Shown here: piece by piece, positions 3,928 to 7,038 of the stretch
How the letters are laid out: each line of letters starts with the position of its first letter
Position numbering within the stretch: the first letter of the stretch is position 1
IMG/VR virus record: IMGVR_UViG_2541047944_000001
Length of the DNA stretch: 9,981 bases
Source: a virus
Lineage: Duplodnaviria; Heunggongvirae; Uroviricota; Caudoviricetes
Direction: 5' to 3' (one strand)
The notes under the pieces: model-generated
What the model saw: only the letters and a program-made list of their open reading frames with translations
Database searches by the model: none
What the model was told of the DNA's origin: nothing
Position numbers and translations under genes: made by a program

Positions 3928-5745
3928 TTAATTTTTGCTATCGTCATTAGTGACCGATACACATGATGGCATCCAGTCTTCTGATTCCTCCGTCAGTGTC
4001 ACGTTTGAACGCAAACCGTGCTTCGTTTTCCGTTTCATATACTCCCTGCCATATTCCGCCATTGCCCCCGGCATATCTTTACCGAAGCGCGTCAGTGTTA
4101 CAGGTTTACCAAACCCATGTGCCCTCATATAAGCCAGATAGGCATGATAGAGATACCTGCGTGGGCTGAATGGCACAATTTCAGCATTACCCACTAACAG
4201 GCCATCACACATTACCGACGCCATGAGATAGCCGCAGAAGTCCACCAGCGAATCCCCCTCTCGCTTTATCGCCAGTGCTTCTTCAGATTTCTGCTGCTCA
4301 TATAACAGGCGTCTGGCTTCGTCCTGGTCAGCAAACCGTGTAAGCAGATGGCGAATCACTACCGCCAGCTCACCTTCTATTTTTTCCGCCAGCATTGGAT
4401 CGCGTTCGTTCTCCGGTACAACTTCCGAAAAATTGAATATCACCCGACGACGTGAGATCCCCCCGCTGCGGTCACTGAATGACATGGCGTTATTGTTAAC
4501 CGCCAGCACTACTGCCGGAATACGCGTTGAGTAGGGGGCTTTGTGTTTCGGGTCAATTGCCACCTTGTCACCGCCTGTAATGGCCTTAATCCCTGCCCCA
4601 TCACCAGCGTAGCGGGTCATATCCGGCATGATAATCAGCGAAAAGCCAACCACTAACGCGCGTTCCCTTGCATCTTCCAGCGCCTTCATGCTTGCCGATA
4701 CTGTGTTGGCCTTACCCGCCAGCATGGTGCAAATCTCCGCCATCACGCTTTTACCACTTCCCCCTGGACCTGTTACCTCAATGAATAACTGCCAGTCGTA
4801 CCGGTTCGCCAGCACCATGAATAAGGCAGCCAGTACGCGATCCGCCTTGCGGTCATTCTCAGCCACCGAACGGCGTAACCACTTCCAGAAATTCGGCGCA
4901 TGTGTTGCCAGCGTTTCCCCCTCTGCTGGTGGGCTGAAAGGTAATTCACTGGCAATTAACAACCAGTCGTTTTTGTTATGCTCCCGAAAATTACCTGTTC
5001 TGGTATCAAATACCCCGTTACTGAATCCAATCAGGTTACGGGCTGTATTCCCCATTACAGGCAAACTTAACTTCATGGTATCGACCGCCGATTTAATGGC
5101 GTTCTGCGAATAGCTGATCTCCGCATCAATGAAAATCTGCGCCATAGCACGCTGTAACTCTTTATCCTGAACCGGCTCCCATACAATGCCGTTGTAATGG
5201 TGAACAGTGTCAGAGTCGGCATGAATCGCCAGTTCACCGCCATAATGTGCCAGGAGAACTTCGCCGCGTTGACTTGCTCCCATCTGGTTAAGCGCCAGTG
5301 ATGAAGCGTTATCGTCTTTTACCCGCTCTTTTTTCTTTACAGGCAGTTCAACTACCTTTTTCTTTTCCGCCAGCTCTCCCCGCTCACGTTCCAGATATTC
5401 GCGCCAGTTCTCCCGTTTCTGGCTGTGCATTCCTTCAGGATAATAATCAGCATCCCTGACACCTGCCGCTGCCAGTTTCTGCCCGATGGTATTAACAAGC
5501 CCCGGACGCAATAACCCCGCCTGGTAGAGACGCACGCGATAGCGTCCGTCCGGTACGATTTGCAGGTTGTCCAGTTCGGCAAGTTGTTGCTCTCCAAGCC
5601 AGACAGGTGGCACGTTATCGCCAGCCAGTCGCCCGTCCTGTTCCTGCCACTGCTTCGCATGTGCCCACGCATCACTACCCGCAAAAATGATGACTTCCGT
5701 CATTTTGTCACGCGGCTGGTGTTTTAAATTTGGCGCTTTTTTCAT
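3928..5745 (-). CDS. Replication initiator, P4 alpha-like primase/helicase (SF3 helicase domain with Walker A GPGGSGKS), about 605 aa
   Basis: Long ORF with Walker A motif (VTGPGGSGKSV) in the second half, typical of the P4-family phage/plasmid primase C-terminal domain. The first ATG at 5745 is preceded by GGAGAG and overlaps the stop of the upstream ORF (ATGA); the track's start at 5760 is a GTG. Adjacent TGTTCACC iterons support the call. It is shorter than P4 alpha (777 aa, from memory), so the N-terminal primase domain may be reduced or different. Confidence 0.85.
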   Translation of the reverse strand: MKKAPNLKHQPRDKMTEVIIFAGSDAWAHAKQWQEQDGRLAGDNVPPVWLGEQQLAELDNLQIVPDGRYRVRLYQAGLLRPGLVNTIGQKLAAAGVRDADYYPEGMHSQKRENWREYLERERGELAEKKKVVELPVKKKERVKDDNASSLALNQMGASQRGEVLLAHYGGELAIHADSDTVHHYNGIVWEPVQDKELQRAMAQIFIDAEISYSQNAIKSAVDTMKLSLPVMGNTARNLIGFSNGVFDTRTGNFREHNKNDWLLIASELPFSPPAEGETLATHAPNFWKWLRRSVAENDRKADRVLAALFMVLANRYDWQLFIEVTGPGGSGKSVMAEICTMLAGKANTVSASMKALEDARERALVVGFSLIIMPDMTRYAGDGAGIKAITGGDKVAIDPKHKAPYSTRIPAVVLAVNNNAMSFSDRSGGISRRRVIFNFSEVVPENERDPMLAEKIEGELAVVIRHLLTRFADQDEARRLLYEQQKSEEALAIKREGDSLVDFCGYLMASVMCDGLLVGNAEIVPFSPRRYLYHAYLAYMRAHGFGKPVTLTRFGKDMPGAMAEYGREYMKRKTKHGLRSNVTLTEESEDWMPSCVSVTNDDSKN

Positions 5746-6041
5746 TTCTGCTCTCTCCACGCGGCAATCATGTTTTTCAGTTCCTGTAGTTTTTTATCCA
5801 CATCCACACGTGACACATGGTTATTTCTGGAAGTCGGGATTTCCCGCCGGAATCTGCAAATAAAGATCTCCACGTTCAGCGAACTAAGAAATGAATATCC
5901 ATCACGGATAAAATAAACACGGTCAAACATCAGTTCTTTTACCGTTACTCTGTTACCGTTCTTATCCAGATAAATAGCGCCGGGGATAATTTTGTGGTGT
6001 GCATAACCGCTGGCAGTCAAGCCAGATAAATATGTTCTCAT
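5742..6041 (-). CDS. Hypothetical protein (99 aa), translationally coupled to the primase gene
   Basis: ATG at 6041 with GGGGA upstream; stop overlaps the primase start (ATGA). AT-rich relative to the primase. No recognisable motif. Confidence 0.5.
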   Translation of the reverse strand: MRTYLSGLTASGYAHHKIIPGAIYLDKNGNRVTVKELMFDRVYFIRDGYSFLSSLNVEIFICRFRREIPTSRNNHVSRVDVDKKLQELKNMIAAWREQK

Positions 6042-6047
6042 GATTAT

Positions 6048-6368
6048 TTATCCCCGATTTGAATCAGTATTCGCTTTCTTTATGGCATTTAATGCATCTG
6101 TGGCATTTTCAATGGTGCACCGTAACGAAATATCAAACTGCCCAAGCATTGCCAGTAACAAACCGATATTACCCATATCAATGCGCATGGCCTTTTCGTC
6201 ATAGTCCTCATTTTCTGACGCATGCCACATCAGGCTACCAATTGACGCAATACCCATTGATATATTGTCAGTAGCCCCATCCGCAGCGGAATAAACCTTT
6301 TTAGCAATATCATGCTCACAGTTAAAATGCGGATTAATCAGGTACTGGTAATTTGACATATCAGGCAT
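6048..6368 (-). CDS. Hypothetical protein (106 aa), in an operon with the HNH gene and the primase
   Basis: ATG at 6368 overlaps the HNH stop (6361..6363) by 8 nt. AT-rich. No recognisable motif. Confidence 0.5.
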   Translation of the reverse strand: MPDMSNYQYLINPHFNCEHDIAKKVYSAADGATDNISMGIASIGSLMWHASENEDYDEKAMRIDMGNIGLLLAMLGQFDISLRCTIENATDALNAIKKANTDSNRG

Positions 6369-7038
6369 GGCACACCCCCTGACGAATACGGGCGGCGAAT
6401 ACCATCACGCAGCCAGCCGGAGATTGCTGGCGTGCTTCCTGTTCGCTGGTGGCCTCAATGGTAATCACGCGCGGTTGTGCCGTGCTCAGGGCGATAAAAC
6501 GCCAGATATATTTATTCAGGTTGTGCGATTGCCCATTTCCTTCCCCGTGATTAGCAAATTTACCGTGATGCTGCTCGCGAAATTGTTTTACTACTTGTTC
6601 GGCCTCACAAATATCCGCAAATAGGCCTAGTCGATGGTTTTTTCCGTTAACACGACATTGGGCGCGCCATTTTTTATGCTGCTTACTCCAAGTAACTCCC
6701 TTGACTCCCGATGTATTATTTTTTGCCTTTAATATGTTGTATTGATTTTCTGCGCTCGTTGCTTCGCGGAGGTTAGTAATACGATTATCACTGCGTACCC
6801 CGTTGATGTGATCAATTAAATTTGTAGGCCATTTGCCATAAACATAAAGCCATGCAAGTCGGTGCGCTGCATAAAGCCTGTTTTTAACCCCAATCTGAAT
6901 ATAACCATGACTGGTAAGACACCCAGCAACACTACCATTTTTAACGTTTCTGGCTGGTGGAACTCTCCATGTAAAAACGCCTGTTTCAGGGTCGTAATGC
7001 AGGGTTTCACGTAAGTATTTTTGGGTTAGTTCAGCCAT
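6361..7038 (-). CDS. HNH endonuclease with AP2 DNA-binding domain (homing-endonuclease-like), 225 aa
   Basis: HNH_3-type motif ([44 protein letters not shown]) followed by an AP2-like domain ([53 protein letters not shown]). ATG at 7038 preceded by GGAGG at 7-nt spacing. Confidence 0.8.
   Translation of the reverse strand: [225 protein letters not shown]

Follow-up and report, generated by a model that had tools for sequence, protein, structure and literature searches.

Here, we describe an HNH endonuclease cassette that interrupts an early gene of a phage satellite and is probably a free-standing homing endonuclease gene moving from one satellite to another. We analysed a 9,981-nucleotide (nt) stretch of viral DNA (IMG/VR record IMGVR_UViG_2541047944_000001), called the window throughout, which, judged by its genes and domains, belongs to an enterobacterial phage satellite of the Gram-negative phage-inducible chromosomal island (PICI) or P4-like kind. 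Upstream of its primase gene lies an open reading frame (ORF) of 225 amino acids (aa) in which an HNH_3 nuclease domain and an AP2 domain are joined to an Icd-like core. With moderate confidence, we interpret this arrangement as the insertion of an HNH_3+AP2 homing endonuclease gene into the icd/kil-like gene of the satellite. The coordinates of all features are collected in Table 1.

Both edges of the cassette became visible when the locus was compared across related islands, whose HNH-less members reveal where the insertion begins and ends. The most instructive of them, the locus L002, is the same element without HNH (~97-99% identical over 2-6528 and 7389-9981 by BLAST, and 98.5-99% in 3533-6528 and 7389-9981), and it carries a 67-aa icd gene before the same 106-aa, DUF4222 and primase genes. 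From 6528 on (TCGCACAACCTGAAT..., encoding SHNLN), the window again matches HNH-less icd genes. The 3' boundary of the cassette was placed at 6528/6529 from L002, L003 and L004, and the 5' boundary at 7072/7073 from L005, the cassette lying after codon 11 of icd. When the stretch 7072-6514 is deleted in silico, the N-terminus of Icd becomes like the canonical ones, such as those of L021 (MAELQHTQTRPKYQYRFLALS) and P4 (...SHPEFVFVFAAV). The HNH frame continues through the entire Icd core. HNH-AP2 homologues that stand alone (169-174 aa) terminate in ...HHGxFANHGxxx, exactly where the Icd part starts, and thus the cassette corresponds to a Shine-Dalgarno site followed by a full-length enzyme without its stop codon. 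The original prediction had suspected that an HNH cassette was inserted in, or fused to, an ORF already in place; this can now be made specific, since the host ORF is an icd/kil-like gene of the family NF033153.

The beginning of the interrupted gene survives upstream of the cassette as a short leader ORF, whose first 33 nt, together with the leader, match the start of the icd-like gene of L005. The stop codon of this ORF overlaps the ATG of the HNH gene (ATGGCTGA), and the junction resembles the one usually found between icd and the next gene (ATGCCTGA). The leader ORF is also present in L011, where all seven of the seven codon differences, counted manually, are non-synonymous.

The insertion point carries a peculiarity in HNH-less elements as well. 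In comparison to L021 and P4, the common 67-aa icd alleles (L002, L003 and L004; e.g., 3962-4165 of L003) have nine extra codons, QGRDSHNLN, exactly at this point, and the DNA coding for them resembles the 3' end of the HNH ORF. The extra codons could be the footprint of a past invasion and loss or, alternatively, an ancestral target. The sequence of the HNH-less icd allele of the L003 type includes CATACCACACACCCGCAAGGGCGGGACTCGCACAACCTGAATAAATA.

The GC-rich tail of the fusion ORF is the Icd/Kil-like domain. The HNH-AP2 part (7038-6529) has a GC content of 42.7%, and of 33.5% at third codon positions (GC3), versus 57.1% and 62.5%, respectively, in the tail (6528-6361; Fisher p = 0.0013). Only 3.2% of the 168-nt segments of the window are as GC-rich as this tail, and in a 150-nt sliding scan the GC fraction peaks at 0.57 at 6350-6499. 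The composition shift had been noticed before and it stands, but the tail, thought then to comprise about 45 codons, has 55, with its edge at 6528/6529. The insertion of the cassette in icd, together with its in-frame reading, explains the shift. The NCBIfam Icd-like model NF033153 matches aa 177-220 (6379-6510) over its entire length (1-48 of 48) with 66.8 bits against a cut-off of 25, and the tail by itself reaches 70.8 bits. Moreover, at the DNA level the tail and the icd genes that stand alone in L002-L004 are ~95-98% identical. NF033153 also matches the 137-aa eta ORF of P4 (the 'cI gene product' in its record) in its C-terminal part, with 73.9 bits; eta is regarded as a Bro-network gene whose truncated form, Kil, acts in cell killing (PMC10111431). 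On the basis of its position, the Icd-like part may be equated with Kil. In the window it belongs to the first coding unit of the early operon and its stop overlaps the next start, likewise in L002-L005 and in P4. The Icd protein of phage P1, P4 Kil and a protein reported from ECOR61 are analogues for a possible inhibition of cell division or killing by the Icd-like part. The Icd function may be kept in the fusion.

A small independent Icd of ~63-67 aa with its own start is not encoded in the window, where the cassette splits the start and 11 codons from the core. The core can be reached solely as the C-terminus of the 225-aa ORF, and no in-frame ATG is found between codon 1 and M212. Elsewhere, Icd-like cores have no N-terminal addition (63-67 aa), or are preceded by a second Icd-like unit (L005, 121 aa), by HNH-AP2, or by what makes up annotated ORFs of 159-164 or ~231 aa. 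Some of these longer ORFs may be artefacts of open frames running over RNA or leader sequences. Two of them, P0190 and P0197 (159-164 aa, 'ash family / Icd-like'), have an Icd-like core at their end and an internal start reading MATTPT...; since P4 eta contains the CI RNA gene, their N-terminal 'Ash' part may, by analogy, be largely a translated immunity-RNA region. Public databases also hold fusions of Icd to the 106-aa protein (P0122, 171 aa, with 36 member sequences, and P0177), which fit a shift of the reading frame in or close to the G-run beside the 8-nt overlap and could be either a real variant or a homopolymer sequencing error.

The remaining part of the fusion proved to be a homing-endonuclease-like HNH plus AP2 protein, as the original prediction had it. 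The HNH_3 domain (PF13392) scores 63.5 bits (cut-off 24.8), and phrog_99 is matched with 263 bits. As a single sequence, the AP2 region stays below the Pfam cut-off (19.5 vs 33.3), but when 27 homologues are combined into a profile, solved AP2 domains are matched (7wq5, E 7.6e-11; 7et4, E 4.9e-6; 5wx9, 6.7e-4), and the same profile aligns the HNH region to the homing endonuclease I-HmuI (1u3e, E 1.1e-4). Seven residues of the HNH region (D76, H77, N79, D84, N85, N89 and N101) occupy invariant or near-invariant columns among these 27 homologues, and their individual catalytic roles are presumably those known from I-HmuI. A sequence search against solved structures gave nothing significant for the 225-aa, 106-aa or 99-aa protein. 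The 225-aa protein matches no other HNH family at E <= 0.01. The window contains no Rfam intron match and no Hint or intein domain at E <= 0.01, and the HNH ORF has its own Shine-Dalgarno site and ATG; neither intron nor intein is involved. Both the nuclease activity and the target site are predictions.

Relatives of the HNH part are abundant in phages (6,074 places in 3,634 records), often in multiple copies per genome, and some of them stand beside other annotated homing endonucleases. Among the matches listed, no phage relative matched across the whole Icd part. The exact 225-aa protein is public on 116 contigs, under the RefSeq name 'Icd-like'. Phage HNH-AP2 homing endonucleases of the I-HmuI type (beta-beta-alpha-Me) resemble the window enzyme in their N-terminal HNH_3 and C-terminal AP2 domains, in being present or absent among near-identical genomes, and in an exchange boundary inside a conserved gene; the HNH+AP2 family has been discussed for ICP1 and others (PMC10448857). 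Unlike them, the enzyme described here resides in a satellite, lacks a stop codon, is fused in frame to the host product and is coupled to a gene stub.

It had also been suggested that the HNH protein might serve cos cleavage, that is, assist the terminase like HK97 gp74 and the HNH proteins of capsid-forming PICIs (cf-PICIs). HNH packaging proteins are core to capsid-forming PICIs (bioRxiv 10.1101/2022.09.08.507074), the window does contain capsid and terminase-related genes, and the HK97-like and cf-PICI packaging enzymes share with the window enzyme the HNH superfamily and the satellite-borne location. However, the two differ in Pfam family, size, AP2 partner and genomic position. The known packaging nucleases sit in an hnh-terS-terL module (bioRxiv 10.1101/2022.09.08.507074), whereas the gene studied here, of the HNH_3+AP2 homing type, lies in the early/regulatory zone between the AlpA-like gene and the primase. 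The element L007 possesses, besides the cassette, a separate 146-aa HNH-motif gene beside the head-tail connector in its head/packaging module, and nearly all related satellites do without the cassette. Furthermore, L006, a sister of the window element type, adjoins a terminase gene of the lambda gpA type. A terminase of this type is not known to need an HNH partner. We thus consider a packaging function extremely improbable.

The cassette is distributed sporadically among satellites. When the region 5400-7800 was compared by megablast with 5,426 complete E. coli genomes, 1,766 of them matched, and the HNH part was covered in only 3; this patchy presence (3 vs 1,766) goes together with definable boundaries in a conserved target gene. 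In the three complete genomes (loci L001, L006 and L007) the cassette is 100% identical; the records that contain L001 and L006 have two matching places each. Including the window, the cassette is found in four satellite backbones with different integrases and attachment sites and, within the set, different replicase and capsid modules. The identity reaches beyond the cassette: tracts without a single mismatch extend over 6451-7470 in comparison to L001, 6281-7494 to L006 and ~6300-7099 to L007, and the flanks differ by 1-3%. In the case of L007, 27 differences are present in 5325-6299, and by our own arithmetic the chance of finding none over 800 bp at this density is ~1e-10. Against L002, the icd core beside the cassette has 8 mismatches in 6421-6522, in comparison to 36 in 3533-6420.

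Diverged fusions are present in other islands, namely P0003 (267 aa, locus L011) and P0004 (224 aa, locus L010), and fusions diverged to 76% and 67% identity retain an open frame into an Icd-like core. Both islands have an integrase, an AlpA-type gene and DUF4222, and a primase was identified in the P0004 locus. In L010 a complete Icd-like unit lies upstream of HNH, which places HNH between two Icd-like units (cf. the tandem-Icd protein of L005). The HNH parts of L011 and L010 are 88% and 79% identical to that of the window, with synonymous divergence (dS) of 0.32 and 0.82 and ratios of non-synonymous to synonymous divergence (dN/dS) of 0.21 and 0.14, values which indicate that the HNH part is under purifying selection. 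Identity falls to 44% and 39% in the fused Icd parts, with a dS of 1.4 in the former and saturation in the latter; dN/dS for the Icd part, window versus L011, is ~0.3. Since the dS of HNH is far below that of Icd, the two halves have different histories. The identical tracts beyond the cassette and the discordant dS are indirect evidence for homing, in which a cassette-less allele would be cut and the gene copied in.

These data also bear on the question whether the HNH gene might be an inactive remnant, that is, a pseudogene, with only a short Icd-like protein made from a CTG start. Current annotation points this way: in L001, L006 and L007 the NCBI annotation pipeline (PGAP) labels the region 'HNH endonuclease, incomplete, missing C-terminus' plus a 52-aa Icd-like protein, and truncated or out-of-frame variants are known (P0002, 194 aa; P0201, 195 aa, partial). 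However, the 225-codon frame is intact in all four of the four copies, the conserved residues of the HNH region are kept, and dN/dS among the diverged copies is 0.14-0.21. In addition to the lack of an in-frame ATG up to M212 mentioned above, there is no Shine-Dalgarno sequence directly 5' of the CTG, and RefSeq also contains the full 225-aa protein. A remnant of this kind is therefore, in our opinion, improbable.

If the cassette is a homing endonuclease gene, its history and action may be pictured as follows. The early operon normally begins with the small icd/kil-like gene, which the HNH gene has entered after codon 11. A transcript starting from 7242-7214 would then carry the hairpin, the 24-codon stub, the fusion ORF, the 106-aa gene, DUF4222 and the primase. 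The old ribosome-binding site of icd and its first 11 codons now form the leader ORF, whose stop overlaps the HNH start; as the HNH gene has no stop, ribosomes would continue into the complete Icd core, and the stop of this core still overlaps the start of the 106-aa gene, followed by DUF4222 and primase. The cell would thus make a 225-aa HNH-AP2::Icd protein instead of a 67-aa Icd. Such a stop-less, coupled insertion would leave the translation chain of the operon unbroken, hence its cost to the satellite would be minimal. In a cell harbouring both an HNH-plus and an HNH-less satellite, the nuclease would cut the HNH-less icd allele near the insertion point, and repair off the HNH-bearing copy would transfer the cassette along with some flanking DNA. 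Spread of the cassette and reshuffled satellite modules would result. Homing endonuclease genes of phages have been proposed to act in this way at boundaries of genetic exchange (PMC10448857). There is a precedent among the Bro-network genes of PICIs, which occupy, like the window fusion, the zone between the integration and replication modules. One protein, MJY48377.1, which may be the one found in the window, is encoded by a helper-embedded PICI located in a terminase gene and combines HNH_3 and AP2 with Bro segments; a mechanism of gene mobilisation was suggested for it in a single sentence (PMC10111431). L006, which bears the exact cassette, has the helper-embedded PICI configuration of that report.

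Several observations weigh against this interpretation. Cleavage and homing are deduced from sequence comparisons, and all E. coli copies are identical, hence the intact frame in them is evolutionarily uninformative. The 6421-7388 block takes in, besides the cassette, leader and promoter and a portion of the repressor gene, and could have been moved by ordinary homologous recombination without any nuclease. The nearest standalone relatives, from Klebsiella satellites, are separate genes, and the position of insertion varies, since in L029, the locus that was checked, the gene stands 5' of the icd leader. When one genome per species was scanned, standalone relatives of HNH or of Icd turned up but no fused copy, which underlines its rarity. 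Finally, three diverged versions keep a frame open into an Icd-like core, and a selected fusion is equally possible on this point.

Such a selected fusion forms the most serious alternative, although we regard it as rather unlikely. Here, an Icd/Kil effector would have acquired HNH-AP2 as an N-terminal extension, serving as a nuclease or for DNA targeting, a product of domain shuffling in the Bro zone, and the 225-aa protein would act as a unit, e.g., in abortive infection, helper interference or exclusion of rival satellites. The several kinds of N-terminal context in which Icd-like cores are found agree with it, as do the fusions that at 76% and 67% identity are still open into the Icd-like core and the dN/dS of the Icd part between the window and L011. 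Also, one N-terminally extended Icd-like protein, that from ECOR61, has been reported as a cell-death effector. Compared by its description only, it has an Icd-like C-terminal core with an N-terminal extension, which is not stated to be a nuclease, and belongs to a multi-gene block with a DNA primase. However, the HNH part is by itself a full enzyme, and its family behaves as free-standing homing endonucleases in thousands of phages; the part is rare, patchy and placed within a recombination tract, and its dS is much below that of the attached Icd, which would be unexpected for an old, co-evolving fusion. Domain fusion is nevertheless compatible with homing, and both could hold.

An extended version of these ideas, which we find more doubtful still, is that the fusion is a bifunctional weapon in satellite-satellite or satellite-helper conflicts. 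The nuclease would cut the cassette-less icd regions of rivals, disabling or converting their early operon, with the Icd/Kil half remaining active; homing genes would colonise coupled operons stop-less and in frame, without intron or intein, and QGRDSHNLN would be the footprint of invasion and loss. Homing of a free-standing gene remains our preferred explanation.

Table 1. Features of the window and satellites carrying the cassette (positions refer to the window unless an accession is given).
Feature	Position	Strand	Remarks
HNH_3 + AP2 :: Icd-like fusion ORF, 225 aa	6361-7038	minus	HNH_3 aa 56-99 (6742-6873); AP2 ~aa 110-166 (6541-6711); Icd-derived aa 171-225
Inserted HNH cassette, 544 bp	6529-7072	minus	34 nt with GGAGG Shine-Dalgarno, then codons 1-170, stop-less
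Leader ORF, 24 codons	7031-7105	minus	surviving icd-like start (Shine-Dalgarno and 11 codons)
Icd/Kil-like part of the fusion	6364-6528	minus	55 codons, GC 57%
106-aa gene	6048-6368	minus	position of P4 epsilon
99-aa DUF4222 gene	5742-6041	minus	ATGA overlap with replicase
D5/P4-type primase-helicase gene	3928-5745	minus	last gene of the coupled block; ATG start at 5745
Putative sigma-70-type promoter of the early operon	7214-7242	minus	-35 TTGACA 7242-7237; -10 TACTAT 7219-7214
Divergent Arc/YlcI-like ORF, 57 aa	7236-7409	plus	PHROG 228 Arc-like repressor, E 3e-7
Leader hairpin	7129-7167	minus	arms 7167-7161 and 7143-7137, then TCTAACCA; kept 5' of icd-like genes
Block differing from L002	6421-7388		icd core 3' flank, cassette, leader, promoter, 5' part of Arc-like gene
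Window element			L002 type; adjoins nfeF
L001			adjoins gcd; separate portal, protease and capsid genes
L006	NZ_CP064847.1 2311664-2328209		inside prophage terminase gene; BRO-N gene; identical cassette
L007			adjoins cspD; DUF927 replicase; own HNH-motif gene in head module

The surroundings of the fusion gene agree in their order with a satellite. The co-oriented ORFs and their domains run from an integrase over an AlpA-like helix-turn-helix gene and the regulatory ('Bro') zone to the primase and the capsid/packaging genes; a scheme of four zones (integration, Bro, replication, late) has been described for PICIs (PMC10111431). No tail or lysis genes are in view in the window, which is cut inside the integrase and downstream of DUF1441; tail genes are also absent in the sister element L002, which is bounded by chromosomal genes. 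Tight coupling of the early genes had been predicted and is seen in the 8-nt overlap of the 225-aa and 106-aa genes (ATGCCTGA) and in the ATGA overlap of the 99-aa gene and the primase, the junction between the 106-aa and 99-aa genes being a 6-nt spacer without overlap. A purine-rich, Shine-Dalgarno-like stretch precedes each of the icd stub, the fusion ORF, the 106-aa gene, DUF4222 and the primase. The ATG of the primase is also the start chosen by PGAP in five relatives, the longest possible start being a GTG at 5760; the protein contains D5_N, DUF5906 and Pox_D5 domains and matches phrog_864 (DNA primase) with 640 bits.

The putative early promoter matches 10 of 12 consensus positions in a consensus scan, and its -35 hexamer is aligned in five related loci. 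Two ATGGTAATTACC repeats (7237-7226 and 7207-7196), each with the palindrome GGTAATTACC, flank its -10 hexamer and, lying near the Arc/YlcI-like ORF, are probably operators. This divergent ORF, annotated as an identical 57-aa protein in L001 and L006, matches NCBIfam YlcI_YnfO_N with 19.1 bits (under the cut-off of 30), and its product is a probable repressor of the early operon. A candidate promoter inside the cassette was discarded: there is one weak 9/12 match within HNH, and the whole region has 3 promoter-like sites versus 4.5 expected.

The leader between promoter and icd stub (7073-7215) was matched in 1,134 of the 5,426 E. coli genomes. Its hairpin has compensatory changes in 3 of 6 stem pairs among 9 variants, and no Rfam family could be assigned to it, the only hit being PK-repBA (20.7 bits, E 0.61). 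Read on the plus strand, the hairpin with its T-run takes the form of a terminator. In P4 the corresponding place holds a C4-family RNA and isrK; no C4/CI immunity RNA was found 5' of the icd part in the window (Rfam, E <= 1), and P4 as the positive control gave C4 with 74.9 bits and isrK with 60.8 bits. An open frame of 186 aa (7031-7591, minus strand), which runs from the end of AlpA through the promoter into the leader ORF, has no family matches and is unlikely to be a gene; a terminator hairpin at 7504-7523 falls on its conserved 'MAHKTKA..GRQ' start, and comparable long frames precede icd at many loci.

The comparison with P4 is informative for the whole operon. The early (left) operon of P4 has the order eta/kil (with the CI RNA), epsilon, orf151, orf106 and alpha, and shares with the window an Icd-like ORF, a small gene with an 8-nt stop overlap (eta 8168-8584, epsilon 7888-8175), a primase further on and an upstream AlpA-type gene. 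Unlike P4, the window has no C4/isrK match in Rfam, possesses another conserved hairpin and a divergent Arc-like gene, and carries HNH, which P4 lacks.

The two small genes between the fusion and the primase occur in HNH-less relatives, thus they are not part of the cassette; the 106-aa and DUF4222 genes are conserved residents of the operon. The 106-aa protein has no Pfam or NCBIfam family, and its sole match is phrog_15327 (function unknown). Its family is narrow, with close relatives in 19 clusters and a few relatives of ~100 aa at 25-43% identity. The AlphaFold2 model (mean confidence score, pLDDT, 78.9) is a two-helix hairpin with helices 19-51 and 58-105, and a fold search with it found no PDB match below E 0.6 (the best, at 0.64, were generic helical hairpins). 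The 99-aa protein belongs to DUF4222 (PF13973; 60.7 bits vs a cut-off of 27, aa 17-67); its AlphaFold2 model, from a shallow alignment, has a pLDDT of 71.8 and consists of a small beta-barrel (23-66) and a C-terminal helix, a predicted fold of the small SH3/Tudor-like barrel type. Homology and fold searches revealed no resemblance to virion structural proteins for either of them.

The original prediction had placed these two proteins where P4 encodes small helper-manipulating proteins. With regard to gene order the analogy is sound, the 106-aa gene being in the position of epsilon, but it is not borne out by profile similarity: hhalign gave probabilities of 0.1-0.2% for the two pairs covered, the 106-aa family versus epsilon (0.1%) and DUF4222 versus orf106. 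A role in helper interaction is possible for the 106-aa protein by analogy of position, and for the small proteins as a pair it is a guess. In relatives, DUF4222 lies directly upstream of the replicase, be it a D5-type primase, a DUF927 protein or a RepA-type helicase, with L010 as an exception; this suggests that DUF4222 is tied to the replication module or to the N-terminal domain shared by the replicases. The N-terminal stretch in question (MKKAPNLKHQPRDKMTEVIIFAGSDAWAHAKQWQEQDG..., ~5330-5745 of the window, minus strand; ~140 aa by DNA homology with L007) is common to three types of replicase: the D5-type primase of the window, the DUF927 protein of L007 (6796-7216) and the RepA-family helicase of L012 (446-1846), and in these it always follows DUF4222.

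Two further observations concern the rest of the window. Iterons of the GGTGAACAGT type and inverted repeats are clustered at 3714-3929, just 3' of the primase stop, and since PICI origins are reported downstream of pri, this cluster probably serves as the replication origin. Two direct copies of a 94-nt repeat (95% identical; 924-1017 and 3459-3552) flank the ClpP-protease/major-capsid fusion gene and a 68-aa ORF, and both copies begin a short look-alike ORF (MKMQK.AFFRAAPAPWQTTPPGGPVKKA).

The HNH-AP2 homing endonuclease family, the Icd/Kil-like family and the P4-syntenic operon were already known. New are the insertion after codon 11 of icd, the leader ORF derived from the icd stub, the stop-less in-frame junction and the evidence of movement between satellites. 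Identical copies of the gene are at present annotated as an HNH pseudogene plus Icd-like protein, or just as 'Icd-like', and our evidence speaks rather for a homing endonuclease that spreads from satellite to satellite. Should the enzyme be inactive, we are dealing with a rare allele of an ordinary satellite gene. If it is active, homing endonucleases would shape the mosaics of satellites, as has been proposed for phages (PMC10448857), and a selfish gene would have entered a coupled operon by in-frame fusion, with the help of neither intron nor intein. In that case, the protein would also offer a natural N-terminal fusion with which the widespread Icd/Kil-like proteins of satellites may be probed.

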